Positions 4,265-63,007 of a stretch of DNA of 64,000 nucleotides are shown in pieces. Below the pieces are notes generated by a model that did no database searches, had not been told where the DNA came from, and saw only the letters and a list, made by a program, of their open reading frames with translations. The DNA is from Stegostoma tigrinum (taxonomy: Eukaryota). Every line of letters starts with the position of its first letter. Position 1 is the first letter of the stretch. The stretch spans positions 26,592,647 through 26,656,646 of the forward strand of contig NC_081387.1 in assembly GCF_030684315.1 (NCBI RefSeq), written 5' to 3'. A program made the translations under genes and the position numbers.

Positions 4265-4354
4265 CTGGGATTGGGAGAGAAAACCGAAAAATAAAAGTGA
4301 GAGACCATGAAAATGTGATGAAATAATTGGGAGATGAAATCTGATTCATTTTAC

Positions 4355-4753
4355 CTTGTACATTTCAACAGCTTCTTTAATCGGCATGAAGTTGTGAGAT
4401 TTGTGATGCCGAGAATCTCGACAAATCAATTTCTTGTCAGTTTCACAAAACAGCTTCAGTTCTTCCTGATGTTCCACACAGTGAAATATATGCCACTCTT
4501 GCGGATTCAGACTTAATTTTTGAGCTTTCTTGGCTAGACTTGCTAAGGTTAGATTGCCTCTGAGGTTTATTGTCGGAAACGTCGTTCCACATACCGGGCA
4601 GGAGTTTATCCCTTTATATTCCCAAGTCTGAGTGATACAGGAGCGACAGAAGCTGTGGCCACACTCCAGTGAAACCGGATCAGTGAACAAATCCACACAA
4701 ATTGAACAACTTACATCCTCAGTCCAACTGTCTCCTAGCTGTTTGGAGTCCAT
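4355..4753 (-). CDS. TRIM E3 ligase first coding exon: C3HC4 RING + B-box2 (TRIM39/A33/xnf7-like)
   Basis: ATG 4753; CSIC...CGHSFCRSC...CPVC RING; CVEHQEELKLFCETDKKLIC...H..H B-box; gtaaaa donor at 4354. Confidence 0.9.
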
Positions 4754-4768
4754 GTTCACACTCAAGCC

Positions 4769-4814
4769 ACTTTCAGTTTCAACATTGTCACGCTGAGGAA
4801 CATGTCACTTCCTC
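4769..4814 (-). promoter_or_regulatory. ISRE/IRF-E (GAAACTGAAAGT, 4780-4769) and ETS/PU.1 site (GAGGAAGTG, 4814-4806)
   Basis: Exact consensus matches about 15-60 nt upstream of the TRIM ATG. Confidence 0.55.
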
Positions 4815-7242: not shown

Positions 7243-7445
7243 TTTCCAGAACCTTCTTCCACCGACTCGCTCCTTCCAGAACACTCTCGGGCTCTCGCCG
7301 TCTCGCGGACCCGCCTCGCTCGCATTGGTCGCCGCTGCAGAACCTTCCACAACATTCCGACCGTGACCTCACCGACCCGCTCTCTCATTGGTCCGCGCCG
7401 CCGTCAATCACCCGCCCGCTGCCGCCCACACACAATGCATAAAGG
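7243..7445 (+). promoter_or_regulatory. Heat-inducible promoter of HSP70-1: 3 HSEs, 2 inverted CCAAT, TATA-like
   Basis: TTCcaGAAccTTC 7244-7256 (perfect); TTCcaGAAcaCTC 7274-7286; GAAccTTCcaCAAcaTTC 7340-7357; ATTGG 7324 and 7387; cataaa 7438; CpG-rich. Confidence 0.85.
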
Positions 7446-7577: not shown

Positions 7578-9509
7578 ATGTCCCCTGCAGCTCAAGGAAC
7601 AGCCATTGGTATTGACCTGGGTACCACCTACTCCTGTGTCGGGGTCTTCCAGCATGGCAAGGTGGAGATCATCGCCAATGACCAGGGCAACCGCACCACC
7701 CCCAGCTACGTGGCCTTCAACGACACTGAGAGGCTCATCGGAGATGCTGCCAAGAACCAGGTAGCCCTGAACCCACAGAATACCATCTTTGATGCCAAGA
7801 GGCTCATCGGAAGGAGGTTTGATGACCCAGTCGTGCAGTCTGATATGAAGCACTGGCCCTTCCGGGTGGTGAATGAAGGAGGGAAGCCCAAGGTCAGGGT
7901 CGAGTACAAGGGTGAGAATAAAGCCTTTTACCCTGAGGAAATCTCATCCATGGTGCTGACCAAAATGAAGGAGACAGCAGAGGCTTACCTGGGACACCCT
8001 GTCAGTAATGCTGTTATCACAGTGCCTGCTTACTTCAATGACTCGCAGCGCCAGGCAACCAAAGATGCTGGTGTGATCGCTGGCCTCAATGTCCTCCGTG
8101 TTATCAATGAGCCAACGGCAGCTGCGATTGCCTATGGCCTGGATAAGAAGGGCAGAGGAGAACACAATGTTCTCATCTTTGACTTGGGGGGTGGCACCTT
8201 TGATGTGTCTATCCTCTCCATTGATGATGGTATCTTTGAAGTGAAATCGACAGCGGGTGACACCCACTTGGGAGGAGAGGACTTTGATAATCGCATGGTC
8301 GATCACTTCATTGAGGAGTTCAAGCGTAAATACAAGAAGGACATTAGTCAGAACAAGAGGGCAGTGAGGAGGCTGAGGACAGCCTGTGAAAGAGCCAAGA
8401 GAACCCTGTCTTCCAGCACACAAGCCAGCATTGAGATTGACTCCCTGTTTGAAGGCATTGACTTCTACACCTCCATCACCAGGGCTCGGTTTGAGGAGCT
8501 GAATGCTGACCTTTTCAGGGGCACTCTGGAACCAGTGGAGAAATCTCTGAGAGATGCCAAGTTGGACAAGTCACAGATCCATGATGTTGTCTTGGTTGGG
8601 GGCTCCACCCGCATTCCCAAGATCCAGAAACTGCTGCAAGATTTCTTCAGTGGCAAGGAGCTGAACAAGAGCATCAATCCTGATGAGGCCGTGGCCTATG
8701 GGGCAGCTGTTCAAGCAGCTATTCTGATGGGGGACAAGTCCGAGAATGTTCAGGACCTACTTCTCCTGGATGTTGCTGCCCTGTCGTTGGGTCTCGAGAC
8801 AGCAGGAGGTGTCATGACTGCACTCATCAAGCGCAATACCACCATTCCCACTAAGCAGACCCAGATCTTTACTACCTACTGTGATAACCAGCCTGGTGTG
8901 CTTATTCAGGTGTATGAAGGAGAGCGAGCCATGACCAAAGACAACAATCTCCTGGGGAAATTTGAGTTGAGTGGCATCGCTCCTGCCCCTCGTGGTGTGC
9001 CACAGATCGAGGTCACCTTTGATATCGATGCCAATGGCATCTTGAATGTCTCTGCCATTGATAAGAGCACTGGCAAATCGAACAAGATCACTATCAGCAA
9101 TGACAAGGGCAGGCTGAGTAAGGAGGAGATTGAGAGGATGGTGCAGGATGCGGAAAAGTACAAGACTGAAGATGAAGCCCAACGGCAGAGGATCGCAGCC
9201 AAGAACTCTCTGGAGTCCTACGCCTTTAACATGAAGAGCACAGTGGAGGATGAGGACGTCAAAAATAAGATCAGTGAGGGAGATAGGAAAAAAGTAATTG
9301 AGCAGTGTAACCAGGCCATATCCTGGGTGGAGAAGAATCAGACGGCAGACAGGGAGGAGTTTGAGCACAAGCAGAAAGAGCTGGAAAATGTCTGTCGGCC
9401 AATCATTTCCAACCTGTACCAAGGAGGGGCAGGTGCAACAGGGGGATCTTGCAGAACCCAGGCTGGAAATGCCACTTCCACAGGACCAACTGTGGAGGAG
9501 GTGGATTAA
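7578..9509 (+). CDS. hsp70: Intronless cytosolic HSP70 (copy 1, 643 aa), inducible type
   Basis: True ATG at 7578 (ORF track starts at an upstream GTG); [32 protein letters not shown] signatures; ends GPTVEEVD; AATAAA at 9638 and 9793. Confidence 0.97.
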
Positions 9510-20050: not shown

Positions 20051-20200
20051 GTCGTTATGGCAACAGTCTAACGAACTCGGGCATTGGCTCGTGCCCTGTC
20101 GCAGCGTTCTAAAGGCGGGGACGTTCGGCCTATGATTTGCTACAACTGCTGGACGTTCGACAGGAACGTTCCCGAACACTGCCCTCTATCTGCAAATAAG
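20051..20200 (+). promoter_or_regulatory. HSP70-2 promoter: RFX X-box, CCAAT, GC box, perfect HSE, TATA-like
   Basis: GTCGTT-AT-GGCAAC 20051-20064; ATTGG 20083; aggcgggg 20113; GAAcgTTCccGAA 20164-20176; caaataag 20193-20200. Confidence 0.75.
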
Positions 20201-20282: not shown

Positions 20283-22193
20283 ATGCCAGCAGCCATTGGT
20301 ATTGACCTGGGTACCACCTACTCCTGTGTCGGGGTCTTCCAGCATGGCAAGGTGGAGATCATCGCCAATGACCAGGGCAACCGCACCACCCCCAGCTACG
20401 TGGCCTTCAATGACACTGAGAGGCTCATCGGAGATGCTGCCAAGAACCAGGTAGCCCTGAACCCACAGAATACCATCTTTGATGCCAAGAGGCTCATCGG
20501 AAGGAGGTTTGATGACCCAGTCGTGCAGTCTGATATGAAGCACTGGCCCTTCCAGGTGGTGAATGATGGAGGGAAGCCTAAGGTCAGGGTTGAATATAAA
20601 GGCGCCAGTAGATCTTTTTACCCCGAGGAAATCTCTTCCATGGTGCTGACCAAGATGAAGGAGACAGCAGAGGCTTACCTGGGACACACTGTCAGTAATG
20701 CTGTTATCACGGTGCCTGCTTACTTCAATGACTCCCAGCGCCAGGCAACCAAAGACGCCGGGGTGATCGCTGGCCTCAATGTCCTCCGTGTTATCAATGA
20801 GCCAACGGCAGCTGCCATTGCCTATGGCCTGGACAAGAAGGGCAGAGGAGAACACAATGTTCTCATCTTTGACTTGGGGGGTGGCACCTTTGACGTGTCT
20901 ATCCTCTCCATTGACGATGGTATCTTTGAAGTGAAATCGACAGCGGGCGACACCCACTTGGGAGGAGAGGACTTTGATAATCGCATGGTCAATCACTTCA
21001 TTGAGGAGTTCAAGCGTAAATACAAGAAGGACATCAGTCAGAACAAGAGGGCGGTGAGGAGGCTGAGGACAGCCTGTGAAAGAGCCAAGAGAACCCTGTC
21101 TTCCAGCACACAAGCCAGTATTGAAATTGACTCTCTGTATGAAAGCTTAGACTTCTACACCTCCATCACCAGGGCTCGGTTTGAGGAACTCAATACCGAC
21201 CTGTTCAGAGGCACTCTGGAACCAGTGGAGAAAGCTCTGAGAGATGCCAAGTTGGACAAGTCACAGATCCATGACGTTGTCTTGGTTGGGGGCTCCACCC
21301 GCATTCCCAAGATCCAGAAACTGCTGCAAGATTTCTTCAGTGGCAAGGAGCTGAACAAGAGCATCAATCCTGATGAGGCTGTGGCCTATGGGGCAGCTGT
21401 TCAAGCAGCTATTCTGATGGGGGACAAGTCCGAGAATGTTCAGGACCTACTTCTCCTGGATGTTGCTGCCCTGTCATTGGGTCTCGAGACAGCAGGAGGT
21501 GTCATGACTGCACTCATCAAGCGCAATACCACCATTCCCACCAAGCAGACCCAGATCTTCAGCACCTACTCTGATAACCAGCCTGGTGTGCTTATTCAGG
21601 TGTATGAAGGAGAGCGAGCCATGACCAAAGACAACAATCTCCTGGGGAAATTTGAATTGAGTGGCATTGCTCCTGCCCCTCGTGGTGTGCCACAGATCGA
21701 GGTCACCTTTGATATCGATGCCAATGGCATCTTGAATGTCTCTGCCATTGATAAGAGCACTGGCAAATCGAACAAGATCACTATCAGCAATGACAAGGGC
21801 AGGCTGAGTAAGGAGGAGATTGAGAGGATGGTGCAGGAAGCAGAAAGTTACAAAGCCCAAGATGATATGCAACACAAAAAAGTCTTGGCTAAAAACTCCC
21901 TAGAGTCATATGCATTCAACATGAAGAATTCAGCAGAGGAAGAAAAAATAAGCAGCAAGATTAGTGAGGAAGACAAGAAGAAGGTAACTGAAACCTGTAA
22001 CCAAGCAATATCCTGGCTGGAGACACACCAGGATGCAGAGAAGCATGAGTATGAAGATCAACTGAAGAAGTTGGAGAATATCTGCAACCCCATTATTGCC
22101 AAGTTATATCAGGGAGATGTGCCTGTTGGCTTCGGTGACCAGGCTGGTAAAGGAAATGCCTTTAGTGGCCCAACAATTGAGGAAGTTGATTGA
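20283..22193 (+). CDS. hsp70: Intronless cytosolic HSP70 (copy 2, 636 aa)
   Basis: All three HSP70 signatures; C-terminal GPTIEEVD; AATAAA 22514. Confidence 0.97.
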
Positions 22194-27956: not shown

Positions 27957-29876
27957 ATGGCAAGCAGGGGGACAGCCATTGGTATTGACCTGGGCACCAC
28001 CTACTCCTGTGTCGGGGTCTTCCAACATGGCAAGGTGGAGATCATCGCCAATGACCAGGGCAACCGCACCACCCCCAGCTACGTGGCCTTCAATGACACC
28101 GAGAGGCTCATTGGAGATGCTGCCAAGAACCAGGTAGCTCTGAACCCACCCAACACCATCTTTGATGCCAAGAGACTCATTGGCAGGAAATATAATGACC
28201 CGGTTGTCCAGTCTGACATGAAGCACTGGCCCTTCCAGGTGGTGAATGATGCAGGGAAGCCAAAGGTCAAAGTCGAGTACAAGGGTGAAGATAAGACCTT
28301 TTACCCTGAGGAAATCTCTTCTATGGTGCTGACCAAGATGAAGGAGATCGCTGAGGCCTACCTAGGCTACACTGTCACTAATGCTGTTATCACAGTACCT
28401 GCTTATTTCAATGACTCCCAGCGCCAGGCAACCAAAGATGCTGGTGTGATCGCTGGTCTCAATGTCTTACGGATCATTAATGAGCCAACAGCAGCTGCCA
28501 TTGCCTATGGCCTGGACAAGAAGGGCAGAGGAGAACGCAATGTTCTCATCTTTGACCTGGGGGGTGGCACCTTCGATGTGTCTATTCTCACCATTGACGA
28601 TGGTATCTTTGAAGTGAAATCGACGGCAGGTGACACCCACTTGGGTGGAGAGGACTTTGATAACCGCATGGTCAATCACTTCATTGATGAGTTCAAACGT
28701 AAATACAGAAAGGAGATCAGTGACAACAAGAGGGCAGTGAGGAGGCTGAGGACAGCCTGTGAAAGAGGCAAGAGAACCCTGTCTTCCAGCACACAAGCAA
28801 GTGTTGAGATTGACTCTTTGTATGAAGGCATTGACTTCTACACCTCCATCACCAGGGCTCGGTTTGAAGAACTGAATATCGACCTGTTTAGAGGCACTCT
28901 GGAACCCGTGGAGAAAGCTCTCAGAGATGCCAAATTGGATAAAGCTCAAGTTAATGATATAGTCCTGGTTGGAGGCTCCACCCGCATCCCCAAGATCCAG
29001 AAATTGCTGCAAGATTTCTTCAATGGCAGAGATTTAAATAAGAGCATCAATCCTGATGAGGCTGTGGCCTATGGGGCAGCTGTTCAAGCAGCTATTCTGA
29101 TGGGGGACAAGTCTGAGAATGTCCAAGATCTACTGCTACTGGATGTTACTCCGCTATCATTGGGTCTGGAGACAGCAGGAGGTGTCATGACCACACTCAT
29201 CAAGCGTAACACCACCATTCCCACCAAGCAGACACAGATCTTTACCACATATTCTGACAGTCAACCTGGTGTTTTGATCCAAGTATATGAAGGAGAGAGA
29301 GCAATGACTAAGGACAACAACCTCTTGGGCAAATTCGACCTCAGTGGGATCCCTCCTGCGCCACGTGGTGTACCACAGATTGAGGTCACCTTTGATATTG
29401 ATGCAAATGGCATCTTGAATGTGTCAGCTGTGGACAAGAGCACTGGCAAAGAGAGCAAAATCACCATCACTAATGACAAGGGCAGATTGAGTAAGGAGGA
29501 GATTGACAGGATGGTGCAGGAAGCAGAAAGATACAAAGGACAGGATGATATGCAGCGTGAGAAAATTGCAGCCAAGAATTCCCTGGAGTCATATGCATTC
29601 AACATGAAGAGTTCAGTGGAGGAAGAGAAAACGAAAGGCAAGATCAGTGAGGAAGACAAGAACAAAGTCATTGAAAAGTGTAACCAGGCCATATCTTGGC
29701 TGGAGGCAAACCAAGCAGCAGAGAAGGAGGACTTTGAGCAGCAATTGAAAGATTTAGAAAAAGTATGCAAACCCATCATTGCCAAACTCTACCAGGGAGG
29801 TATGCCTGAAGGGCCATTCTCAGAACAAGTCAAAAAGGACCCTTCTGGTGGACCAACAATTGAAGAAGTTGATTGA
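27957..29876 (+). CDS. hsp70: Intronless cytosolic HSP70 (copy 3, 639 aa)
   Basis: HSP70 signatures, canonical [13 protein letters not shown] linker, GPTIEEVD end; ATTAAA 30063, AATAAA 30365. Confidence 0.97.
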
Positions 29877-34740: not shown

Positions 34741-35454
34741 TCAAATTCCTGTCACCTCAGGGGAACAAAGACAACTTCTCCAATCTTGTCAAATAACTGA
34801 AGTCCCTCATCCCGGGATGTAATCTTTTCCGCAGTGTCATTAATGCTTTCCCAATTTTGTAAAATGCCAAGCCAGGAATTATACACAGTATTTCAGTTGA
34901 AACCAAAACAGTTTCCTTGCTTTTGTACCCCCTGCCTCTATTTATTAAGCCCACAATCCTATTTGTTTTCCAACCACACTCTCAACCTGCAATGTTACCT
35001 TCAATGATTTATGTGCATATACTCCCAGGTCTCTCTTCGTTCACCCCATTAGAATTGTATCCTTTAGTTTGCATTATCTCTCCTCACTCTTCCAATCAAA
35101 ATGCATCACACTACGATTCTCTATTTTTGCTGTCACTTAGTTGTTCATGTCTTCAGCTTCTCTATGCACTCTTGAAGTCTGTCACTAAATGTCTTACTGT
35201 TTCCTTGCTCTGTGTCATCTGCTAATTTCAAGATTGTATCCGTTACACCAAAGAGTAGTCAGTGATATATATTAGGATGAAGAAGTCAAAGTCATTGGGT
35301 AATGCCATTGTTCAACATCCTGCAGTCTGGAAAAAAAAACTGTTCACTAATATCAGAGATAATGGGAACTGCAGATGCTGGAGATTCCAAGATAATAAAA
35401 TGTGAGGCTGGATGAACACAGCAGGCCAAGCAGCATCTCAGGAGCACAAAAGCT

Positions 35455-35482
35455 GACGTTTCGGGCCTAGACCCTTCATCAG
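35455..35482 (-). ncRNA. Minimal hammerhead ribozyme in Penelope pLTR
   Basis: rc CTGATGA-a-gggt ctag gccc-GAAAC-GTC: intact core, stem II, palindromic ACGT stem III, GUC cleavage triplet. Confidence 0.75.
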
Positions 35483-36724
35483 AGAGGGGGATGGGGGGAG
35501 GGAACTGGAATAAATAGGGAGAGAGGGGGAGGCGGACCGAAGATGGAGAGTAAAGAAGATAGGTGGAGAGAGTGTAGGTGGGGAGGTAGGGAGGGGATAG
35601 GTCAGTCCAGGGAAGACGGACAGGTCAAGGAGGTGGGATGAGGTTAGTAGGTAGCTGGGGGTGCGGCTTGGGGTGGGAGGAAGGGATGGGTGAGAGGAAG
35701 AACCGGTTAGGAAGGCAGAGACAGGTTGGACTGGTTTTGGGATGTAGTGGGTGGGGGGGGGGGAAGAGCTGGGCTGGTTGTGTGGTGCAGTGGGGGGAGG
35801 GGATGAACTGGGCTGGTTTAGGGATGCAGTGGGGGAAGGGGAGATTTTGAAACTGGTGAAGTCCACATTGATACCATATGGCTGCAGGGTTCCCAGGCGG
35901 AATATGAGTTGCTGTTCCTGCAACCTTCGGGTGGCATCATTGTGGCAGTGCAGGAGGCCCATGATGGACATGTCATCAAGAGAATGGGAGGGGGAGTGGA
36001 AATGGTTTGCGACTGGGAGGTGCAGTTGTTTGACATTCCACATTAAGCAGAGGTTCACCTGCACATCTGCCAATGTGGTATACTGCATCCACTGTACCCG
36101 GTGTGGCTTCCTCTACATTGGGGAAACCAAGCGGAGGCTTGGGGACCGCTTTGCAGAACACCTCCGCTCGGTTCGCAACAAACAACTGCACCTCCCAGTC
36201 GCAAACCATTTCCACTCCCCCTCCCATTCTCTTGATGACATGTCCATCATGGGCCTCCTGCACTGCCACAATGATGCCACCCGAAGGTTGCAGGAACAGC
36301 AACTCATATTCCGCCTGGGAACCCTGCAGCCATATGGTATCAATGTGGACTTCACCAGTTTCAAAATCTCCCCTTCCCCCACTGCAGCCCTAAACCAGCC
36401 CAGTTCATCCCCTCCCCCCACTGCACCACACAACCAGCCCAGCTCTTCCCCCCCACCCACTACATCCCAAAACCAGTCCAACCTGTCTCTGCCTCCCTAA
36501 CCGGTTCTTCCTCTCACCCATCCCTTCCTCCCACCCCAAGCCGCACCCCCATCTACCTACTAACCTCATCCCACCTCCTTGACCTGTCCGTCTTCCCTGG
36601 ACTGACCTATCCCCTCCCTACCTCCCCACCTACACTCTCTCCACCTATCTTCTTTACTCTCCATCTTCGGTCCGCCTCCCCCTCTCTCCCTATTTATTCC
36701 AGTTCCCTCCCCCCATCCCCCTCT

Positions 36725-36752
36725 CTGATGAAGGGTCTAGGCCCGAAACGTC
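36725..36752 (+). ncRNA. Minimal hammerhead ribozyme in Penelope pLTR
   Basis: CTGATGAagggtctaggcccGAAACGTC, intact core. Confidence 0.75.
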
Positions 36753-37159
36753 AGCTTTTGTGCTCCTGAGATGCTGCTTGGCCTGCTGTGTTCATCCAGC
36801 CTCACATTTTATTATCTTGTTCACTAATATGCTGTGTTTCCTGTCCATGCTGCCATTGTCCCTTTTAGTTTATGGGTTGCAACTTGGCATGTAATCTTGC
36901 TATTTGTCCCTTTGTCAAATGCTGTCTGGAAGTTTATGAACACCACATCCACAGTAACACCCTCATCAACCCACTTTCTGACCTTATTTAAAAAGAAACA
37001 GATTAATTGACATTTCACCATTAACAAGATCATGCTGATTTTCCCTAACTTATCCAAGTTAATAATATGTCCCATATTATTATTATAAAGTAAGTGTAAG
37101 TGTATCTGTGGAATTCTTTGCTGTAGAAAGTTGTCAAGGCTGTATCATTAAATGTATTC

Positions 37160-40751: not shown

Positions 40752-40754
40752 ATG
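40752..40754 (+). CDS. LSM2: LSM2 exon 1 coding part (ATG only)
   Basis: gccATG|gtgagt: Kozak ATG directly followed by a perfect donor; completes the 95-aa frame. Confidence 0.85.
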
Positions 40755-40769
40755 GTGAGTGAGAGAGGG

Positions 40770-41010
40770 TCTGAGAGAGACCGGGCCCGGGGGGGAGAGA
40801 GAGTCTCACAGGGACCGGGCCCGGGGAGGGAGAGAGAGTCTCACAGGGACCGGGCCCGGGGAGGGAGAGAGAGTCTCACAGGGACCGGGCCCGGGGGGGA
40901 GAGAGAGTCTCACAGGGACCGGGCCCGGGGTGGGGTGGTGAGGGAGAGTCTTACAGGGACCGGGCCGGGGGGGTTGAGGGAGAGAGTCTCACAGGGACAG
41001 GGACCAGGCC
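40770..41010. repeat. GC-rich minisatellite, ~31-36-bp unit x ~6-7
   Basis: gagagagagtctcacagggaccgggcccgggg(aggg) repeated. Confidence 0.9.
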
Positions 41011-41129
41011 GGGGGGCAAGAGTGAGTGAGTGAGGAGGTAGGAAGTGGAGGGATAGGGACGGAGATAGAGTGTGAGTGACTGTCTCACAGAGACCAGACC
41101 GGGGGACGGAGTAGAGAAGCAGGTTGAAA

Positions 41130-42260
41130 GACCCTACGGTAGGCTATTGCATAAAATGCGGAGGCATGTGATTGAGGGTGATTTAGCGGTTTGGATCAGA
41201 AGTTGGCTAGTTGAAAGAAGACAGAGGGTGGTAGTTGATGGGAAGTGTTCATCCTGGAGACTAGTTACTAGTGGTGTACCGCAAGGATCTGTTTTGGGGC
41301 CACTGCTGTTTGTAATTTTTATAAATGACCTGGATGAGAGCATAGAAGGATGGGTTAGTAAATTTGCAGATGACACTAAAGTCGGTGGAGTTATGGAGAG
41401 TGTGGAAGGATGTGGTGGGTTACAGAGGGACATTAGATAAGCTGCAGAGATGAGCTGAGAGGTGGCAAATGGAGTTTAATATGAAAAAGTGTGAGGTGAT
41501 TCACTTTGGAAGGAGCAACAGGAATCCAGAGTACTGGGCTAATAGTAAGATTCTTGGTAGTGTGGATGAGCAGAGAGATCCTTGTGTCCATGTACATCGA
41601 TCCCTGAAAGTTGCCACCCAGGTTGATAGGGTTGTTAAGAAGGTGTACGGTGTGTTAAGTTTTATTGGTAGAGGGATTGAGTTTCGGAGCCATGAGGTCA
41701 TGTTGCACGTGTACAAAACTCTGCGGCTGCACGTGGAGTATTGCTTACAGTCCTAGTCGCTGCATTATAGGAAGGATGTGGAAGCGTTGGAAAGGGTGCA
41801 GAGGATATTTACCAGGATGTTGCCTGGTATGGAGGGAAGGCCTTATGAGGAAAGGCTGAGAGACTTGACGCTGTTTTCATTAGACAGAAGAAGGTTAAGA
41901 GGTAACCTAATAGAGACATACGAGATGATCAGAGGATTAGATAGGGTAGACAGTGAGAGCCTTTTTCCTCAGATAGTGATGGCTAACATGAGGGGACATA
42001 GCTTTAAATTGAGGGGTAATAGATATAGGACAGATATAGAGGTAGGTTCTTTACTCAGAGTAGTAAGAGCGTGGAATGCCCTGCCTGCAACAGTTGTAGA
42101 CTTGCCTAAGTTTAAGGGCATTTAAATGGTCATTGGATAAGCATATGGATAATAATGGAATAGTGTAGGTTAGATGGGCTTCAGTTTGGTTTCACAGGTT
42201 GGCGTGACATTGAGGGCCGAAGGGCCTGTACTGCGCTGTAGTGTTCTATGTTCTGTGTTC
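41130..42260 (+). mobile_element. CR1 LINE 3' ~1.1 kb (young)
   Basis: [22 protein letters not shown]...SKFADDTK; ttctatg tail. Confidence 0.9.
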
Positions 42261-42289
42261 TAGACAGAGCCCTATAGTGATGGTGAGGG

Positions 42290-42500
42290 GTGGGGGGTGA
42301 GAGGGGGAGGGGGGGGAGAGAGAGAGAGAGAGAGAGAGAGACTGTGTGTGTCTCATTGGGTGAGTAGGAGAGAAGGATGGAAGGAAGAGTGGAGAGTTTC
42401 ACAGATTGGGGGAGGGAAGGAGAGACACAGAGGAAAGGGGGAGGGGAGGGAGAGAGATAGTAAGGAGGCAAGAGAGAGCGCGAAGAGAGAGATTGGGTAA
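42290..42500. repeat. (GA)n microsatellite and purine-rich tract
   Basis: (ga)~12 at 42316-42341 inside G/A-rich sequence. Confidence 0.8.
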
Positions 42501-42617
42501 AGGAGAAGGGTGGTGGCTGTGCTGGTCATTCCCACATTCCATTTAAAGAATTTTTAAAAAGCAACTTAATGTCATAACCATTTGACTCAGTCAAGCGCAG
42601 GAAGTTGTTGAGCTTTG

Positions 42618-43870
42618 CCATAGAACATAGAAAAGTACAGCACAGTACAGGCCCTTCAGCCCACGATGTTGTGCCGTGGAATAATCTTAATCCAAAAATA
42701 AAATAACCTAACCTACATTCCCCTCAATTCACTGCTGTCCATGTGCATGTCCAGCAGTCACTTAAATGTCACTAATGATTCTGCTTCCACGACTACCACT
42801 GGTAAAGTATTCCATGCGCTCACAGCTCTCTGGGTGAAGAACCTCCCTCTGACGTCTCCTCTGTACCTTCCTCCTAACACCTTAAAACTATGACCCCTCG
42901 TGGCATTCAATCCTGCCCTGGGGAAAAGTCTCTGGCTATCGACTCTATCCATGCCTCTCATTACCTTGTACACCTCGATCAGGTCACCTCTCTTCCTCCT
43001 TCTCTCCAGAGAGAAAAGTCCAAGCTCAGTCAACCTCTCCTCATGACAAGCCCTCCAGTCCAGGCAGCATCCTGGTAAACCTCCTTTGCACCCTCTCCAA
43101 AGCCTCCACATCTTTCCTATAATAGGGCAACCAGAACTGGACACAATATTCCAAGTGTGGTCTCACCAGGGTTCTGTAGAGCTGCAGCATAACCTCGTGG
43201 CTCTTAAACTCGATCCCCTTGTTAATGAAAGCCAAAACACCATATGCTTTCTTAACAACCTTATCCACTTGGGTGGCAACTTTGAGGGAGCTATGCACTT
43301 GAACACCAAGATCCCGCTGTTCCTCCACACTGCCGAGAATCCTGCCTTTAATCCTAAATTCAGCATTTAAGTTCGACCTTCCAAAATGCATCACTTCGCA
43401 TTTATCCAGGTTGAACTCCATCTGCCATTTCTCAGCCCAGCTCTGCGTTCTGTCAATGTCTCACTGAAGCTAGCAATAGCCCTCGATACTATCAACGGCA
43501 CCTCCAACCTTTGTCATCAGCAAACATACTAACCCACCCCTCAACCTCCTCATCCAAGTCATTTATAAAAAGTACAAAGAGCAGAAGCCCAAGAACAGAG
43601 CTCTGCGGGACACCATTCAGCACTGACCTCCAGGCAGAATACTTACCATCTACAACCACTCCCTGCCTCCTGTCAGCCAAATCACCCTGTATCCCATACC
43701 TCCTGACTTTATGAATGAGCCTGCCGTGGGGAACCTTATCAAATGCCTTGCTGAAGTCCATGTACACCACGTCCACTGCTCGACCCTCATCAACCTGTCT
43801 CGTGACTTCCTCAAAGAACTCAATAAGATTTGTAAGGCATGACCTGCCCCCCTCAAAGCCATGCTGACTC
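42618..43870 (-). mobile_element. CR1 LINE 3' ~1.25 kb (young)
   Basis: QHGF..GRSCLTNLIEFF...MDFSKAFDKVPHGRL...[13 protein letters not shown]; catagaa tail. Confidence 0.92.
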
Positions 43871-43961
43871 CCTTTATTCACACATGATCCAACAAAGTTT
43901 TAAATTTAGCTGTTTTGATTACACAAGAATTCCTGAGCTCATTCTTTTATCTTTGTTTCAG

Positions 43962-44029
43962 TTGTTTTATTCGTTTTTCAAATCCCTAGTTGGGAAAGAT
44001 GTTGTTGTCGAGTTAAAGAATGATCTCAG
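43962..44029 (+). CDS. LSM2: LSM2 exon 2 (LFYSFFKSLVGKDVVVELKNDL)
   Basis: tttcag / gtaagt; 68 nt; matches vertebrate LSM2 N-terminus. Confidence 0.97.
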
Positions 44030-44698
44030 GTAAGTTCTCCTTGTGCTTGTGTCAGTAGGGTGAAGTGTGGCTGTATAAGTAATGTCATTGGTGAGTGTTG
44101 TGACCAAGCTCTCTACTAGTGGCGTTAACTTTTCTTCAAAACAAAAAGGAATATTGCAATAAATGATGCCTTCATTTATAAGGTGATAAGTGGCTACACA
44201 TACAGTCTAAATGTGACTGCTCAGTGGAATACTGCATGAGCTTATTTAAGATCAGTGTGTTCTTTTTTAATTTGTCTAGCCGTTGCTCTTATTATAAATG
44301 AAGGAGAAGAAAAAATGCATTTGGGAGTAGTGCTTGAACTGTTGATTGTTCAGAACGCTGCGTCTATGTATTTAATTGATTGAAATCAATCCAACTATTC
44401 ATTACGGTGAACAATTGATGTTAAAATCCATCAGATTTTGCTTAAAGAGACAAGAAAATCCCACTTGCGGTTTGAAACTGTTTAAAAGTGCATTGAGGTT
44501 GTAACTGCACCTACTTGGTTGGATCATGGTCATCAAAAGTTGTAGTCTGTCCCCTGAGGTAGCAACACCATTCCAGATAAGGGATTACTGTATCCAAAAC
44601 ACACTTTTGGAAAAGCATATGGACAATGTAAAATGGATGAAGTATTATCTACCTGTTTACTTTTCTTCAGTATTTTGAAGGTAACACATTCATAAGAT

Positions 44699-45050
44699 GG
44701 GTGGCTCAGTGGTTAGCAGTGCTGCATCACAGCACCAGGGAACTGGTTTTAATTCCACCCTCAGGCAACTGTCTGTAGAGTTTACACGTTCTGCCTGTTT
44801 TCTCCCCCAAGTGCTCTGGTTTCTCCCCACAGATGTGCAGCCGAGGTAGACTGGCCATGCTAAATTGTCCATTGTGTCCAGGGATCTGCAGGCCGGGTGG
44901 GTGAGCCATGGGAAATGCAGGGTTTCAGGGATGGGGGGGGAGAGGGGTTGGGTGGTGGTGTTTGGCCCTGGGGACAATACCCTTTGAAGAGTCGATGTGG
45001 ATTCATTGGGCGGAATGGCCTGCTTCCACAGTGTTGGGATTCTGTGACTC
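44699..45050 (+). mobile_element. tRNA-derived SINE
   Basis: A box head, V-core-like middle, tail. Confidence 0.75.
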
Positions 45051-46782
45051 TAAGATGTTTGAGCATTTTTGGAGTGTTGGTGTAGGCTTGGTGGCCCAAA
45101 TGGCTTCTTATCCACACTAGGGATTCTGTGATTTTCATTTTATTCTACGGGCACCTATATCTGAGTAGCAACAAAGCAAACTAACTCCCTGCCAGTAGAC
45201 ACAGGTGACTTTTTAAAGAGAAAATGTAATATCAGACTTTAATAGGTTGAAAACCTGCAAATTGATGTGATGTGAGCAGTGTTGAATAGATCAGCATTTA
45301 TTGTTTATCCCTAATTACCCTAGAGTAGGCATGGTGAGTTCATGAGCTGCTGTAGTTCATGGTGTAGGAACACTCCCAATGCTGTTAAGAGGGGAATTTA
45401 AGATTTTTGACCAAGTGACAGCAAGGGAATAGTGATATATTTCCAAATATAGATGGTGAGTAGCTTAGGAATTTGAATGTCGTGCCTGCTGTCCTTGTCT
45501 TTCTAGGTTGTAAAGGTCATATGTTTGAAAGGCTTCTGTGGAGCTTTTGCATCTTGCTGATGGTATACCATGTGTCAGGAGTGAATGTTGAAGGTGGTAA
45601 ATGTGGTGCAAGTCAAGTGGGTTACTTTGTCCTGGATGGTGTTGGTTTTGTGTTGTTGGAGCTGCACTCATCCAAGCAAATGGCCTATATTCCATCCTGA
45701 TTTGTGCCTTGTAGACGGTGGACTGACTTGGGGAAGTCAAGAGGCAGTTACTTGCTGCAGTATTCCTAGCTTCTGGCCTGGCCTTGTAGCCACAGTATCT
45801 ATGTGGTTAGTCCAGTTCAATTTCAGGTCAGTGATAACTTCCAGAATGTTGATGGGAGTTACATGAAACTGTCTGATGTATGTTAGAGTTCTAGCTGTGC
45901 AACCACTCCTTAGCTAGAGGCATGGTAAGTTCAGGAGCATAAGTCTTTGGTACTATTGCTGAAGTAATTTTACGGCCCGTAGCTGTTGCTTGATACTACA
46001 TGGTTGAAGAGTGGAGATCCTGCCACCATTGATACCAGAGGATGTTAAGGAGGATTGACCATTATTATTTCTGATTATTATGAAGCTGGAGAAGGTTCAA
46101 AAGTCATTTGCCAGGATGTTGCCGAGTATGGAAGGCTTGAGTTATAAGGAGAGGCTGGTTAGGCAGGGACTTTTTTCCCTGGAGCATAGGAGACTGGGAA
46201 GTGACCTTAGAAAGGTTTATAACATGTGGGTGCAGGTAAGGTGAATGGCAGGTGTCTTTTTGCTAGGGTGATTGATTTCAAGACAAGGGGTCATATTTTT
46301 AAGGTGAGAGGAGAAATTTTAAAAAAAGACTTGAGGGGTAAATTGTTTTACACAGTGGCTTGTGTGAGGAATCAATTTCCAGGGGAAGTGATGGATGTGT
46401 TGAAGTTACAACATTTAAAAGACATTTAGATAAGTACATGAATAAGAACTGGGTCACGTGCAGGCACATGGGAGGGATATGGGTCACGTGCAGACAGATA
46501 GGACTAGTTTTCTTTAGGATTATAATCGGCATGAACTGATTGGACTGAAGGATCAGTATCTATGCTGTCTGACTGTCTCGTTAAAGATCGTTGTAACTTA
46601 TTGAAGATGGGGATATTTGTGGAGCCCCTGCCTTCAGAGTTGTTTAATTGTCCACCACTATTCACAACTGGATGTGGTAGGATTACAGAACTTAGGTCTG
46701 ATTCCTTTAGTCTGCCTATTACATGTTGCTTCCATTGTTTGGCACGTGAGTAGTCCTTCACCAGATTGACAACATACTTTTA

Positions 46783-47105
46783 GGGTGGCAAGGTGGCTCA
46801 GTGATTAGCATTGCTTCCTCACAGTGCCAGGAACCCGGGTTCGATTCCACGCTCGGCGACTGTCTGTGTGGAGTTTGCACGTTCTCCCTGTGTCTGCATG
46901 GATTTCCTCCGGGTGCTGCGGCTTCCTCCCACAGTCCAGAGGTGTGCAGGCTAAGGTGGATTAGCCATGCTAAATTACCCCTAATGTTGGGGGATAGGTA
47001 GATTAGGTGGGTTGTAGGGGTAAGGGTCAGGGTTGGATGCTCTGAGGGTTGGTGTGGACTTGTTGGACTGAAGGGCCTGTTTCCACGCTTAGGGATTCTG
47101 TGATC
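46783..47105 (+). mobile_element. tRNA-derived SINE
   Basis: ggtggctcagtg head, gggttcgattcc B box. Confidence 0.85.
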
Positions 47106-49593
47106 TATATCTAGTACTAGTTCTGGTATGTTATCCTTCAGTTTTCTTCCAACCAGGATTGATTTCTTGGCTTGATGTTGTTAGAGTGCAGGCTATGCTG
47201 GGCCATGAGATTGCAGATTGCAGATTGTGATTGTATGCAATTCTGTTGCTGATGACTCTCAGTCCCTTGTGGAGGCCCAGTCTTGAGCTGCGAAATCTGT
47301 TGGAAATCTGTCCCATTCAGCACAGTGGTAATGTCCTACAGGACAGTAGAGGTCATCTTCACAGTGAATATGGGACCTTGTCTCTGGAACAATGTGGTAC
47401 CCACTCCTACCAAAACTGTCATAAGCAGAAGTGTTTGCACTGAGCTCCAGTATATCTTTCCCTCTTTGTTCTGTCACCATTTACCGCAGGCCTTTAAATC
47501 TTGGCCAGCTCAATCAGTGGTGGTGCTATGGAGTCACACTTGGCTATGGCCGTTGAAATTCTTGCCTGTTCTCTGCACTCGCTACCTCAAGTGCATCCTC
47601 AGAATTGTCTTTGACGTGGAAAAATGCTGATCCAAAAACTTGATGCTATGCAGGACAAAGCAACCAGCTTGATAGGTACCACATCCACTCCCTCCTCCAC
47701 CAATACTCAGTACATGAGTGGGTACCTTCTAAGAGATCCACTGCTGAAATTCACCAATGATCCTTCAGACAGTGCCTTCCCAACCTTCACCATTTCGAAT
47801 GACACGGGCAGCAGATCTGTGGGAAGACCATGACCTGCAAGTTCCCCTCCAAGCCCCTAATTCTAATTCTGACTTGGAAATATATTGCCATTCCTTCAGT
47901 ATCGCTGTGTCAAAACCCTGAATTTCCCTCCCTCGTGGCATTGTAGGTCTGCCTACAGCACATGGACTGCAGTGTTTCGAGAAGTTAATTTGCCACCTCA
48001 GGGCAAATAGGATCGGACAATAAAAGTTGGTCTTGGCAGTAATGAAAACAAACTACTGTGGATGCTGGCCATCTGAGATTCAAAAACAAATTGCTGGAGA
48101 AACTCAAGTCTGGCAGCACCTATGGAGAGAGAAACGGTTAATGTTACAGATGGCTGTCGATAAAGTCCCACATAAGAGTTTAGCCTGCAAAACTAAAGCC
48201 CTGTGGGATTGGAGGTCATGTATGAAACAAAACTAGTTCGCAGGAAGAGAATAGCGTCTGCTTTCAGAGTGGCAGGCTTGAACTCCAGCTAGTCACAATA
48301 TATTGACGAATTAGATGAGGAAACTACATGTTATACCTCCAGGTTCGCTGATGAGACAAAACTCTGAGAGGGTTTGCTGTGAGGAGATGCTCTGTGTCCA
48401 GAGATCATCCAGCTTGTTTTGGACAAGTTCAGTAAGTGTGCAAATAAATGGCAGATGCTGAATAATATGGATAATGAGGTTATCCACTTGGGGAAAACAC
48501 AGTCAGATTATCATTTGATGGATTAGAAAAAGAAAATTGTACAACAAGCCCTGAGTATCCAAGCGCACCGGTTGCTGAAAGTAAGTGTGCAGGTGCTGAT
48601 GAAGGCAAAATGTTGACCTTGATAGCAAGATTTGTGTATAGGTGCAGGGAGTCTCGCTGTAACTGTACAGCGCATTGTTAAGACTGCTCCTGGAGTAGTG
48701 TATGCAGTTGTGGCCACCTCGTTATCAGAGGAAGGATGCTTTAGCTGTTGAGAGAGCATGAAGAAGTTTCAACAGACTGACTATAAAGGATCAGAGTTAG
48801 AACTTTTAGGACAGTTGAGAAATTTCTTTACCCAGAGAGTGGTGAGCCTTTAAAATGCTCTGTTACATGAAACTGTTGAGGTTAAAAACGTTGAGGGCTT
48901 TCAAGAAAGATGTAGATATAGTTCATGGGACTAATGGTATTAGAAATATCAACTGTTATGGGGAGAAAGGGAGAACAGTGTAGTGAGTTGGATGATCAGC
49001 CATGATCATTTTGAATGGCAGAGCAATCTCAAGACCTGTTTTTCCTATTTTCTATGTTTGAGTCCACTGTGACTCGTGTTTGGAGCTGGTTTTGCAGTGC
49101 TTGCATCACTTGTTTCAATAAGAAAAGTTGTCACTGATCTGCAACATGAATTGTCTTTGTATCCCCTTCTGCTTGACCTGAGCGTTCCCAGTCTTTGCCG
49201 ACTTCACCTTGGTGCAGATGGTATTTGGCTGTGACTGACTGCGTGTTCTTTTGATAAGTTTGAGTTGTCCGTATAGCACTTGGTCTTGATTGATGGGACT
49301 TGGTCTACAGGCTGTCAATGTAAGACGGTCATTTGTTAGTCCAGTGTGGAATCTGGGAGAAGCTACTTCCTTACTGCCCAGAGTATGATTAGCATGTGGA
49401 CCTTACTGTGACAGAGAGGTGGCTTCTGAGGGTAGGGGCACTCTGTTGGACTAATTGAGCTGAATGACTTGTGCTGTGAATATTTTTAAGACTGACAATG
49501 GGAAGCTGTGTGCTGTACATTTGGAAAGAATGATAATGCCTAAACTCTAATACAAACATAATAATATATTATTTTCCTCCCATTTATTTTTAG

Positions 49594-49624
49594 TATCTGT
49601 GGAACGCTGCACTCAGTTGATCAG
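49594..49624 (+). CDS. LSM2: LSM2 exon 3 (SICGTLHSVDQ)
   Basis: ttttag / gtgagg; 31 nt; Sm1 motif. Confidence 0.96.
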
Positions 49625-50493
49625 GTGAGGGTTGCATGTTTTGGCAGTGAATTAACACTAAAGTGTAGCTTCATTGAACTTCAAAGCTGTGTGGAACAAC
49701 CTTCAAGCTACAAATCAGGGCGAGCATTGAGCGTGTAATTATTTATTCCCTTGAATTTGATGCTTGATTCCAACCTGGACTTAACCTCTTTCCCAAAAAG
49801 CCTTTCTTTTTTTAAAGGAAATGTTTAATCCACTGTGTGTTACTGACCATCTCTTCAAACATATACTAGTGTTTGCTTGGGAGGGGAGCATTGTCCATGT
49901 TGTAGATCCTTGTTACTGGCTCCTGGGATGACTTGCCCTGCTGCCCTGTCACCCTGTCTAAAGTGGGTTTGAAATCTCTGGGGTTTAGAGTGAGATAGAA
50001 ATATACAGGGTTCTGAAGGGGTTTGACAGGGTGGACACTCGCTGGCTGTTTCCTCTTGACTGGGGAATCTTTGAATACAGGTGCTATGGTTTCAGGATAT
50101 GTCTGATCATTTCCCACTGAGATGAGAAATGGCTTCACTCAAGGGGTTTAATTCAGTGGGATTCTCTGCCCCAGGGGATAATCCTTGTCAAATGTTTGGA
50201 AATGTTGGGGGAATCAAGGGATCTGGGGTGTGTGGGGGAAGGTGGAGTTGAACTGACGATCAGCCATGATCTTATTGAGCATGCTTGGCAGATCATATGG
50301 TGTGCTTCTCCAGGTTATGATTTCCATGAGTACTGTGAAAGCATTATTTATTTACTGAACCTCTCTGAAAGTTGAGCATGATCCGAGCATTGGGCTGAAT
50401 GGCCTATTCCTGTGCCAGAAGTATTTCACTCTCCCTGAATGATGTGTAAGTGATATTTTGCAGGACGTTTTCACTGTCTCTTTATCCTTTCAG

Positions 50494-50553
50494 TATTTGA
50501 ACATCAAGCTGACAGACATAAGTGTCACTGACCCAGAGAAATATCCACACATG
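50494..50553 (+). CDS. LSM2: LSM2 exon 4 (YLNIKLTDISVTDPEKYPHM)
   Basis: tttcag / gtgagt; 60 nt. Confidence 0.97.
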
Positions 50554-52359
50554 GTGAGTGCTGTGCACAATTATTGAGCCTCCTGCAGGAATTGTATTCG
50601 AATAAACGTTCGTTCCGGTGGTCTGAAACAAGCTGACAACAAAATGGGGTAAATGGTGGGTGGAACCTGGGGGTCTTTCTCCTGATTTCTGACTCACCAG
50701 GATATTGGTAGTTGCCCTTTGGGGGTCGGTGATAGTAGTGTCTCCTCGTGTGGAAAGACAATACCAAACTCAGGAATTTAGCATTAACTCTGCAATGGAT
50801 GAATGATAGCCAAATGCTGCAAAAATCTTCAGTTTTCTTCTGTCTAACAGATTTTTACAAGTGCTATTTTAATGGGGTAATACAACTATTTGAGTTGTAT
50901 AGACATTTATTAATCTTCTTTAATTATAAGGTAGTTGCAAAGTAATCCAAAAGAGAATGAGAAACCTCTCTACCCAGAGGCTGATTAGAACGTTAAACTG
51001 GTATTCCTGCGTATCTGCAGTCCTTGTCCTTTCCAGTGGCAGAAATCGTGGGATTTTGAAGGGTCTTTTTACAGAGCCTGATTTGAGTTGTTTCAGCACA
51101 TCTAGTTTGGTACACAGTCTTACCAATCTACGCTAGCAGCTGGGGAGTGAATGTTTCAGGCAGTGGGTGAGGTGCTGACCATCTAGGTTGTTTTTGACCT
51201 TGGATTTCATAATCATCTGAGAAAGTGGAGTGTATTCAGTCACGCTGCTGACTTGTCCCTTTGTAGGTTGTAGACAGGCTTTGGGAGTCAGGAGGTGATC
51301 TACCTTTCTTCAGAATTCTCAACTTGTAGCCACAGTATTTATACAGCCAGCCCAGTTCAGCTTCTGGTTCATGGTAACTCCCGCAGTGTGCAGATTGTGT
51401 GGGGTTCAACATGATAATGCCATTGAATATCAAGGGGCGGTGATTAGATTCTCTCTCGTTTAAGAGCACAGAGGTGTTACAGAAGGACCCCACTCAACAC
51501 ATTGTGTCTGCACCAGATTTTCATTGTCTGGTATGTATGTTAATTCCCTCTTGTCAGACCAAGCCTGAATGTTGTCCAGGTCTTACTGCATATGAACATG
51601 TACCGGTTCTATATCTGAGGAGCCATGGATGATGCTGGACATTGTGCAATCATCAGTGGTCAATCCTACTTCTGATCTAATTGTGACAGAAAGCTGACTT
51701 GCAGTTGAAGGTGATTGGATCTGAGGCACTATCCTGAGGAACTTCTACCATGATGATTTTGGACAGAGACAGTCAACCTCTGACAATCACAGCCATCTTT
51801 CTTTGTGATAGGTATGACTGCAGCCAGCAGAGTTGCTCCACCTGTTTCCTGGTCTCCTGTTTTGCGAAATCTCCTTGATGCCCCACTAGGTCTGATGTTG
51901 GTTTGATGCATGGCAAGTAAGATTTGTGCTACACAAGTGCCAGTCAATGACCCTCTCCAAAAAAGGAGAATCTAACCATTGCCCATGACATTCAAGGGCA
52001 TTATCATCACTGTATTCCCCCTCTATCAGCATTCCAGAGGTTACAATTGACCAGAAACCGAACTGGGCAGGCCATATAAGTACTCTTGATGAATTAAGAA
52101 ATTGAGAGCTCATCTCAGTAATGGTTATCCGGCAACATTCCTCATTTTGTTGCAAAAGAACTCATTCGTTTCACTACTGGGGAAAGAAACCTCTAGTCCA
52201 TATGTGGTCTGACCTGAATGTGATTCCAGACCCACAACAACGTGGCTAGCTTTTTGCTGCCCTCGAATGACTGAGCAAGCCAGTTAATTCAAGGGCAATT
52301 AGGGACATGGACAAAAAATGCTGACCGTGCCAGTGATGCCCACACCTCACGAAGGGGAC

Positions 52360-52590
52360 AATTCCAGCCCCTGGTATCTGTCTGTGTGCGGTTTACACAT
52401 TCTCCTTGCCTACGTGGGCTTCCTCTGGGTGCTGTGGTTTCCTCCCACAGACTAAAGATGTCCAAGTGAGTTGGATTAGCCATGAGAAATGCAGGCATAG
52501 GGTGAGAGTTTGAGTCTGGGTCTGATGCTCTTCAGAGAGTCGGTGTGGACTTGGTGGGCAGAATAGTCTGTTCCCACACTGTAGGAATTC
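52360..52590 (+). mobile_element. 5'-truncated SINE
   Basis: Core and tail match other copies. Confidence 0.65.
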
Positions 52591-53068
52591 GGCAATGATA
52601 CTAAAGAGATTAGGATACTGTGGAGGCGCGATCTATGGTAAAAGAAAGTGGGTAAATATGTGGAGGCCAAGATGATAGGGCAAAAGAAAGAGGTGGATAT
52701 GTATAGTATTTTTAATGTTGAAAAGCCTCTGAAAGTTGCAGAAATTTAGGAGAAATGAGCCCTACTGTGTCAGTGTCTTGTTTTTGAAATGGCTTTTATT
52801 TCCTTTATACTTTTGAACAATGATCATTTAGACCTCTAGTTTTGCTTGGGGAAAAAACATGTAGTCAGACATTTTATCTTGCATTCTTCAAGGCAATTTC
52901 TAAGAAATATCAACTCTGAGATTCCTGATTTGATCCTACATCTGTATTCCTTGCAAATTGTCTGAGTGCCTTGCAGAAAGCTTTGGGAACTGTGTCTCTA
53001 TATAAGTAATCCAACTGATTGTTTGCGCTACACTCACCAGCATTAATGCCGAGTATTCTTTCATTCAG

Positions 53069-53194
53069 CTCTCTGTGAAGAACTGCTTTATCCGAGGCTC
53101 GGTAGTGCGTTATGTACAACTCCCAGCTGATGAGGTGGACACGCAGTTGCTGCAGGATGCAGCAAGGAAAGAAGCAATGCAGCAGAAGCAGTGA
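53069..53194 (+). CDS. LSM2: LSM2 exon 5 (LSVKNCFIRGSVVRYVQLPADEVDTQLLQDAARKEAMQQKQ*)
   Basis: ttcag acceptor; Sm2 IRG motif; exons total 288 nt = 95 aa + stop; candidate AATAAA 54191. Confidence 0.97.
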   Translation, partial: LSVKNCFIRGSVVRYVQLPADEVDTQLLQDAARKEAMQQKQ

Positions 53195-61982: not shown

Positions 61983-62116
61983 CCTAAGTTGTGGGTTTGG
62001 CAAGAGAATGAGTTAAGTAAAAGGATCAGGGGTCAGGGTTTGCAAAGAGCAGGAGAAGGGACGCGTTGCAAAGCAAACAGATGCTGTCAATCAGTTGGGC
62101 CTTTTAAACAAGTAGC

Positions 62117-62276
62117 NNNNNNNNNNNNNNNNNNNNNNNNNNNNNNNNNNNNNNNNNNNNNNNNNNNNNNNNNNNNNNNNNNNNNNNNNNNNNNNNNNNN
62201 NNNNNNNNNNNNNNNNNNNNNNNNNNNNNNNNNNNNNNNNNNNNNNNNNNNNNNNNNNNNNNNNNNNNNNNNNNNN
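62117..62276. other. Assembly gap (160 N)
   Basis: Run of n. Confidence 1.
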
Positions 62277-62291
62277 GAGCTGCAGAGAGAG

Positions 62292-62786
62292 ATGGCCTTC
62301 CATCTGCTGCAGATCTCGGAGCAGGACAAGCTGCTGGGCAAACCTGCCTTCAAGGTGCTGGGCTCGCTGGTGCTGGCCACCGTCTTCTGGGGCTTGCAGG
62401 AGATGGCCGAGGTGGGCTTCCAGTGCCCCTGGCTGGCCGGTTACAACGAGGTCTACGGTGTCTCCTTCCTGCTGGTGCCTGCCCTGGTGCTCACCCTCCT
62501 TGGCGTCTTCCTGCACCGTGAGTGCCTGATGGGCTGGAGGGGTACAGCGGCCAAAGGAGAGGGGTGCTCATCCCAGCAGCCCCCTTCTGCCTGTGCACCG
62601 GGCTCCTGGAGGATGGTTACCTCGCTGCGAGTCCTCTATCATGCCTGGGTGTGGATCATTGTGGTGCTGCTGGATGGGGACTGCTACACCTGTGTGCAAT
62701 ACTTCCTCCGTTTGCATGGACCCAGCTCCAGCTCCAACCCCGGAGAGGATTCTGAGCTCATCCGCATCCTGCACTTCGAGTCTCGG
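62292..62786 (+). CDS. CALHM/FAM26-family large-pore channel, coding exon 1 (TM1-TM3; rest outside window)
   Basis: FQCP...YNEVYGVSFLLVPALVL..LG and WVWIIVVLLDGDCYTC motifs; exon ends HFESR|gtgagt, the position of the conserved CALHM intron (xxSQ|) before TM4; ATG 62292 (an upstream start inside the gap cannot be excluded). Confidence 0.85.
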
Positions 62787-63007
62787 GTGAGTTTGCTACC
62801 AGGGCTGGGAAGGCACCATTTCTCTCGGCTGCAAGGCCATTCGCCCCCACCCCATGCTAGCCCTTGTGTAGCCTGGCCCTACCCCACCATCTCCACCCCA
62901 GTCTTTCGTGTAACCTCCTGCACTGGAAGCCTTGTTGCCTTGTTTGCTATGCACAGTAATGCCAACAGTGTGGGTCCAAATCCTGCACCACATCAGGGGC
63001 ATCTCCC

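Follow-up and report, generated by a model that had tools for sequence, protein, structure and literature searches.

The window, the whole stretch of 64,000 nucleotides analyzed here, carries a TRIM exon, three HSP70 genes and an LSM2 gene followed on the same strand by the first exon of a gene of the CALHM family (Table 1). The LSM2 gene, identified by short motifs and by gene order, has a stop codon ending at 53194, and the CALHM ATG lies 9.1 kb downstream. The claim of a first-pass annotation that the CALHM gene adjoins LSM2 thus agrees with the order and strand of the two genes, whereas the physical link between them runs across a 160-N assembly gap. The gap, placed just upstream of the exon by that annotation, is indeed there as the only gap of the window, and ends 15 bases before the ATG.

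Table 1. Positions of genes and other features in the window.
Feature	Position	Strand	Remark
TRIM RING + B-box exon	4349..4804	-	Place and strand as for the sawfish 'zinc-binding protein A33-like' genes preceding the HSP70s
HSP70 gene 1, intronless	7578..9509	+	
HSP70 gene 2, intronless	20283..22193	+	
HSP70 gene 3, intronless	27957..29876	+	
LSM2	40752..53194	+	Candidate ATG exon 40752-40754
Further LSM2 exons	43962-44029, 49594-49624, 50494-50553, 53069-53194	+	
Window-unique stretch left of gap, promoter candidate	61984..62116	+	
160-N assembly gap	62117..62276	.	Sole interruption of the LSM2-CALHM interval
CALHM exon 1 (N-terminal helix, TM1-TM3, second extracellular loop)	62292..62786	+	165 codons
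GTGAGT splice donor, phase-0 family intron site	62787..62792	+	Exon 2 (TM4, C-terminal helix) expected past the window end

Gene order and the assembly gap

The gene entered as smx5 in the tables used for comparison of gene order is presumably LSM2. These tables were taken from the supplement of PMC10751288, where those for white shark, catshark and lungfish give no product names. The window order of TRIM (-), three HSP70 (+) and LSM2 (+) is the same as that in the sawfish chromosome 34 MHC (PMC10751288); the window carries a conserved MHC class III block. In the same tables the first genes past smx5 are small ones, which the sawfish table calls histones; vars1 comes next, at a distance of 58 kb in sawfish, 125 kb in white shark and 189 kb in catshark. 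The CALHM gene had been proposed to lie where mammals have VARS1, a proposal that fails since vars1 still follows smx5 in these three elasmobranchs; the CALHM gene is therefore no replacement of VARS1 and, if the gap join is right, its site is between LSM2 and the small-gene or histone cluster. The annotated gene-free space after smx5 is 7.7 kb in sawfish, 27 kb in white shark and 56 kb in catshark (PMC10751288). The synteny comparison recovers the TRIM-HSP70-LSM2 order in sawfish, and the tables of the three elasmobranchs show no annotated CALHM immediately downstream of smx5.

The 133 bases left of the gap are unique within the window and had been read as promoter-like. Both of the motifs cited for that reading are present; however, TTTTAAA occurs 49 times on both strands of the window and GTCAATCA occurs 6 times, so the promoter-like reading is weak. 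The motifs were rejected as evidence, and they do not secure the gap join. Three of the 6 copies of GTCAATCA, at 7403, 40609 and 62086, are located shortly upstream of the starts of HSP70 gene 1, LSM2 and the CALHM gene, which faintly suggests a CCAAT-like box near the three start codons. Comparison of the gap region with contigs (4 of the 17 listed runs) revealed no contig spanning the gap. Contig X2 matched 62277-63003 without difference and continued toward the gap for another 43 letters, contigs X5 and X9 from a related shark (organism B) covered the exon and ended near the gap, and the left flank was covered by X1 only, a pattern equally compatible with a right and a wrong join.

The sawfish MHC holds a RefSeq-annotated 'CALHM6-like' gene, LOC127586126, beside flotillin-1 and 2.25 Mb from LSM2, which is listed in the 2023 supplement of PMC10751288 but goes unmentioned in the paper's own text. 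The idea of MHC-linked CALHM-like genes is therefore already latent in public data, which qualifies the first-pass proposal of an undescribed MHC-linked lineage; what stands of the proposal is that the CALHM gene is genuine, selected and non-canonical and probably adjoins LSM2 in an MHC class III block. In the supplement's sawfish table (NC_067438.1, 6,470,789-6,518,256), the CALHM6-like gene is situated between two uncharacterized genes of 3.2 and 4.4 kb, and the three genes are possibly a small CALHM cluster by flotillin-1. Two divergent shark CALHMs are on records of 115,848,844 and 163,470,629 bases, and the white shark and catshark MHC chromosomes, on which the last tabulated genes end at 115,613,256 and 163,380,576, fit those two records in a match of size that involves no mapping and does not thereby place the genes inside the MHC. 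The catshark MHC chromosome also bears many non-MHC genes (PMC10751288). Overall, several members of a fish CALHM radiation appear to be located on the elasmobranch MHC chromosome.

The reedfish MHC-chromosome table of the same supplement names no CALHM. An uncharacterized gene of 5.6 kb, LOC114646177 (NC_041394.2, 167,061,531-167,067,149), lies directly after smx5 on the same strand in that table and is a candidate for the bony-fish counterpart of the window CALHM. In the lungfish table (NC_056743.1, 682.8-687.7 Mb) LSM2 and FLOT1 are eight rows apart and adjoin TAP and class I genes, and both shark CALHM-like sites, at LSM2 and at FLOT1, may derive from one ancestral neighborhood.

Homology, fold and selection of the CALHM exon

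The ATG that opens the stop-free frame of the exon has A at -3 and is followed by G at +4, and the frame is closed by the donor right after the residues ESR. The only Pfam family matched by the translation was PF14798, with a score of 69 bits against a cut-off of 25 and an E value of 4.4e-19, and all 20 matches in a PDB sequence search at E≤10 were CALHM or CLHM chains. An AlphaFold2 model, built from an alignment of 28 sequences, contained an N-terminal helix and three long helices with a mean pLDDT of 67.5. When the model was compared with 48,161 chains, the top five matches were all CALHM or CLHM structures (Z 8.1-9.1, rmsd 3.6-6.6 over 113-141 aligned residues) and the next match had a Z of 5.7. 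The best 29 rows listed by Foldseek were likewise all CALHM, none at E≤0.001. Searches of the ESM Atlas returned PF14798 clusters only; judged by size and name, the window protein and a protein of Callorhinchus gave identical sets of three. In five of the six unspliced gene calls of relatives that were examined, S-Q/R-V was present at the place equivalent to the donor, the V being encoded by the GT of the donor. These results confirm that the frame is exon 1 of a genuine protein-coding gene of the CALHM family and bear out both the family and the intron position named in the first-pass annotation.

The window protein is 95% identical to a whale-shark ab-initio model (P0002) and 90% identical to one from the bamboo shark Chiloscyllium punctatum (P0003), which indicates that the window comes from a carpet shark. 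Contigs of organism B differ from the exon at 29 positions, 20 synonymous and 9 non-synonymous, with a dN/dS of 0.135; when the 29 changes were placed at random a mean of 7.0 was synonymous, and at least 20 were synonymous in 0 of 100,000 draws. The 9 amino-acid changes of organism B are identical to those of P0002, and the two comparisons are therefore a single piece of evidence. Residues 3-79 have no difference from the whale shark and one from the bamboo shark, and the changes in the exon are concentrated in loops. The results confirm that the gene is under purifying selection. The synonymous sites of the exon, with a GC3 of 0.81, differ from organism B by 16% (dS 0.18), and the 228 non-coding bases that flank the exon on its contig (window 62292-62999) show 12 differences (5%); CpG decay or GC-biased conversion may be behind the excess synonymous divergence of the exon.

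Only one of the eight listed organism B differences beyond the donor is synonymous in the read-through frame, indicating that coding constraint ends at the donor. No TM4 was found in the intron read-through to 63122, where no hydrophobic window exceeds 1.6. A second exon is therefore expected outside the window, and a single-exon gene formed by read-through of the intron was ruled out by the same two results. All four gene models of the sub-lineage to which the window gene belongs lack TM4, the bamboo-shark model ending in 24 non-hydrophobic residues and the other three stopping at or just past the donor. None of 1,450 candidates was a longer homologue of the exon product, no curated full-length orthologue was found in searches of protein databases, and none of 198 pattern matches in metagenome contigs was a relative of the exon. 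The full-length divergent shark relative P0007 is predicted to form four long helices plus a further helix at the C-terminus, and its model gave 29 matches to structures at E≤0.001, the matches being CALHMs. By analogy with P0007, exon 1 is likely spliced to a second exon to give a four-helix subunit.

Disulfides and phylogenetic position

With the numbering of human CALHM1 transferred via the CxC motif, the window protein retains F43, Y55, L60, P63 and W121 in place of F40, Y52, L57, P60 and W114, residues at which mutation cuts or abolishes CALHM current in the work summarized in PMC13183375, and D128 in place of D121, the position at which mutation is reported to block both CALHM1 and CALHM6 (PMC10068325). 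Residues C45 and C134 are equivalent to the C42/C127 pair and are predicted to form that bond. Position C44 is occupied by W47 and residues 135-165 contain no cysteine; thus the C44-C161 pair is absent. Both disulfides are listed among the positions common to all in a 2026 survey of 5,805 homologues (PMC13183375), and the C44S and C161S changes in human CALHM1 were reported to abolish surface delivery and reduce multimers (PMC8560582). The second cysteine of the CxC motif is replaced in exactly four aligned rows, the three carpet-shark proteins and that of Callorhinchus, and is kept in all 29 other rows having the site. The same four rows lack a cysteine in the second loop, which among the other 30 rows is the case in only two, both aberrant CALHM6 models. 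The paired loss points to a change that is ancient and tolerated, and it favors orthology with the protein from the chimaera. In addition, N-glycan sites are missing from the second extracellular loop of all three carpet-shark proteins. Nine other divergent shark CALHM-like proteins (P0005, P0007, P0012, P0017 and P0051-P0055) mostly have three cysteines in the second loop and have a TM2-TM3 loop that is rich in cysteine and variable in length, a trend opposite to that of the window gene.

Outside its own cluster the window protein had 26 matches among 1.84 billion representatives, the best no more than 41% identical, and among these are numerous proteins of sharks and teleosts that are uncharacterized or carry the name 'CALHM5/6-like'. 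Trees were inferred from exon 1 only, with 34 rows and 167 columns or with 31 rows and 96 columns of conserved blocks, and were rooted on one invertebrate-like row; unnamed rows were labeled by resemblance, and branches are long. The canonical rows were CALHM1, 3, 4 and 6, CALHM2 and CALHM5 being unsampled; the rows omitted were P0018, P0024 (a repeat protein that is not CALHM-like), P0026 and isoforms or near-copies (P0029-32, P0034-37, P0039-45, P0047-50, P0056-57); the 31-row tree additionally omits P0023, P0027 and P0055. The canonical rows formed a starred clade without the window gene in both trees (98/96 and 97/94). The three carpet-shark rows paired with Callorhinchus A0A4W3GS98 in both trees (89/86 and 83/63, unstarred) and grouped with divergent shark and teleost rows (88/72 and 75/55, unstarred), a radiation whose members are about 30-40% identical to one another. 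AU tests rejected placement of the window gene with CALHM6 (p 0.027), with CALHM4+6 and with CALHM1+3 (p 0.044 each); placement with the divergent shark rows alone was not rejected (p 0.089). The motifs LDGDxY and AFKVxG are common to the window protein and the divergent shark proteins.

These results place the window gene outside the sampled CALHM1/3/4/6 (AU p 0.027-0.044), CALHM2 and CALHM5 being absent from the trees, suggest that it is loosely tied to the fish 'CALHM5/6-like' radiation, and point to A0A4W3GS98 as its probable chimaera orthologue. The phylogenetic part of the earlier proposal is upheld to that extent. The further suggestion of retention in cartilaginous fish fits the sub-lineage of the window gene; non-canonical CALHMs of the wider group are also found in teleosts, and retention therefore holds for the sub-lineage only. 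Judged from its sequence, the gene is a CALHM by homology that departs from canonical CALHM1-6 in clade and in the second disulfide.

The elasmobranch 'CALHM5/6-like' proteins, exemplified by XP_067830150.1 of Heptranchias, XP_038672638.1 of Scyliorhinus, XP_048472928.1 of Rhincodon and sawfish LOC127586126, resemble the window protein in being non-canonical and in LDGDxY, a similar N-terminus, a short second loop and the S-R at the exon end, and both apparently reside on MHC chromosomes. However, the window protein is only about 21-27% identical to these proteins which, unlike it, keep CxC and mostly have three second-loop cysteines and a glycan site. The uncharacterized, partial Callorhinchus milii A0A4W3GS98 is 35% identical over 111 columns and shares the loss of the second CxC and second-loop cysteines and the S-R at an unspliced donor, but it has kept its glycan sites. 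Human CALHM1/CALHM3, an ATP-release channel encoded at 10q24, shares with the window protein the fold, the intron site and equivalents of F40, Y52, L57, P60, W114, D121, C42 and C127, whereas the window protein has no C44-C161 pair, no second-loop glycan site, a second loop of 31 rather than about 57 residues, and a separate clade. Mammalian CALHM6, encoded at 6q22 in human, belongs to the same family and is likewise acidic at the outer TM3 end (mouse E119, window D128), but a joint clade is rejected as given above. CALHM6 acts in the macrophage-NK synapse and has an immune role in mice (PMC10068325).

Interpretation and alternatives

The reading favored here, to which a probability of about 0.58 is given, is that the locus encodes a non-canonical, fish-specific four-helix CALHM subunit, likely in MHC class III past LSM2, that conducts or tunes an ion or ATP pore as a partner subunit or internally. 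Exon 1 would be spliced to an unseen exon 2 carrying TM4 and the C-terminal helix, as P0007 is predicted to fold, and by analogy with known CALHMs the subunits would assemble as a ring into a large-pore ion or ATP channel that may open on depolarization or low external Ca2+. CALHMs form heteromers (PMC11186629), and the subunit most likely acts inside heteromers that include a different CALHM, or else on internal membranes, rather than standing alone at the surface, because the C44 and C161 mutants of CALHM1 miss the surface and the loop glycan site is absent. The gene would be an old paralogue of the fish CALHM radiation. Against this reading, the loss of C44 kills human CALHM1 (PMC8560582), a result also in keeping with a gene that makes no channel or is in decay.

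A gene in decay is the core of one alternative, in which a three-helix, truncated or recently dead CALHM has lost exon 2 and yields a non-conducting regulator or no product. Such a gene would explain why TM4 is found neither in any model of the sub-lineage nor in the read-through, why the window protein lacks a disulfide that human CALHM1 requires and why protein databases yielded no curated orthologue. The dN/dS, the frame intact in three carpet sharks, the intact donor and the end of selection at that donor argue otherwise, and ab-initio models on fragmented assemblies often overlook short, distant exons; truncation or death is decidedly unlikely. It is improbable that the scaffold is mis-joined at the gap, such that a genuine CALHM gene is not beside LSM2. 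The gap is the sole link to LSM2, and the tables of three other elasmobranchs have no annotated CALHM right behind smx5; however, the gap is of a non-round size, suggesting that read pairs were used to estimate its length, relatives appear on MHC chromosomes in any event, and the unannotated 27 and 56 kb after smx5 in white shark and catshark leave room for a gene that curated annotation seems to have missed. Very improbable is a fast-evolving canonical CALHM, such as CALHM2 or CALHM5, that has moved and been drawn out by long branches. The best single matches include CALHM6 (41%) and CALHM1 (34%) rows over parts of the protein, branches are long with AU p values near 0.05, and published trees group CALHM2 and 5 with 4 and 6 (PMC13183375), but the starred canonical clade excludes the window gene in two trims, three canonical placements are rejected, and LDGDxY and AFKVxG are common with the divergent shark proteins.

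The structure proposed in the favored reading is compatible with an MHC linkage that is accidental, the gene serving a non-immune role in taste, epithelium or nerve, and this is judged only slightly less probable than its opposite. Many neighbors in the class III region are non-immune, LSM2 and VARS1 among them. The neighbors here are housekeeping or stress genes, the window gene is no orthologue of CALHM6 by the AU test, and its strong conservation is unlike that of an immune gene in an arms race. On the other hand, members of the sister radiation are diverse and seem to be linked to the MHC, which we consider a common pattern for immune genes, and CALHM6 has its immune role in mice. An immune role for the window CALHM, argued by analogy, therefore has about even odds even if the remainder of the favored reading holds.

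No shark or MHC-linked CALHM was found in the titles and abstract beginnings of the open-access literature, a scope outside which most subscription papers fall, and the words 'shark', 'cartilaginous', 'teleost' and 'MHC' are absent from the main text of the 2026 CALHM survey, from which its supplements may differ (PMC13183375). A wider proposal, tentative and on balance unlikely, is that jawed vertebrates possessed, in addition to CALHM1/3 and CALHM2/4/5/6, a third branch that resided in the ancestral MHC; mammals would have lost it, whereas sharks, rays, chimaeras and teleosts would still have it. The sub-lineage of the window gene would predate the shark-chimaera split and, having shed the C44-C161 disulfide, provide an ATP-release or regulatory subunit of immune cells. 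If such a branch existed, purinergic signaling pores belonged to the early MHC, an ion or ATP channel would become one of the genes known from the oldest living MHC, and shark immune transcriptomes would have a concrete target. CALHMs are viewed as a family of six members, and a gene under selection without one of the disulfides is a natural test of the purpose of that bond. The results also suggest that the names 'CALHM5-like' and 'CALHM6-like' in fish databases may conceal a separate clade.

Minor features were observed elsewhere in the window. Pairwise identity among the three HSP70 proteins is only 85-89%. Heat-shock-element patterns precede HSP70 gene 1 at 7244 and HSP70 gene 2 at 20164, and another lies between the two at 12675. 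A 1.4-kb near-palindrome at 35388-36819 (93% identity) is made of a repeat with more copies at 16850-18976, the frames of which presumably resemble the GIY-YIG end of Penelope-like elements.
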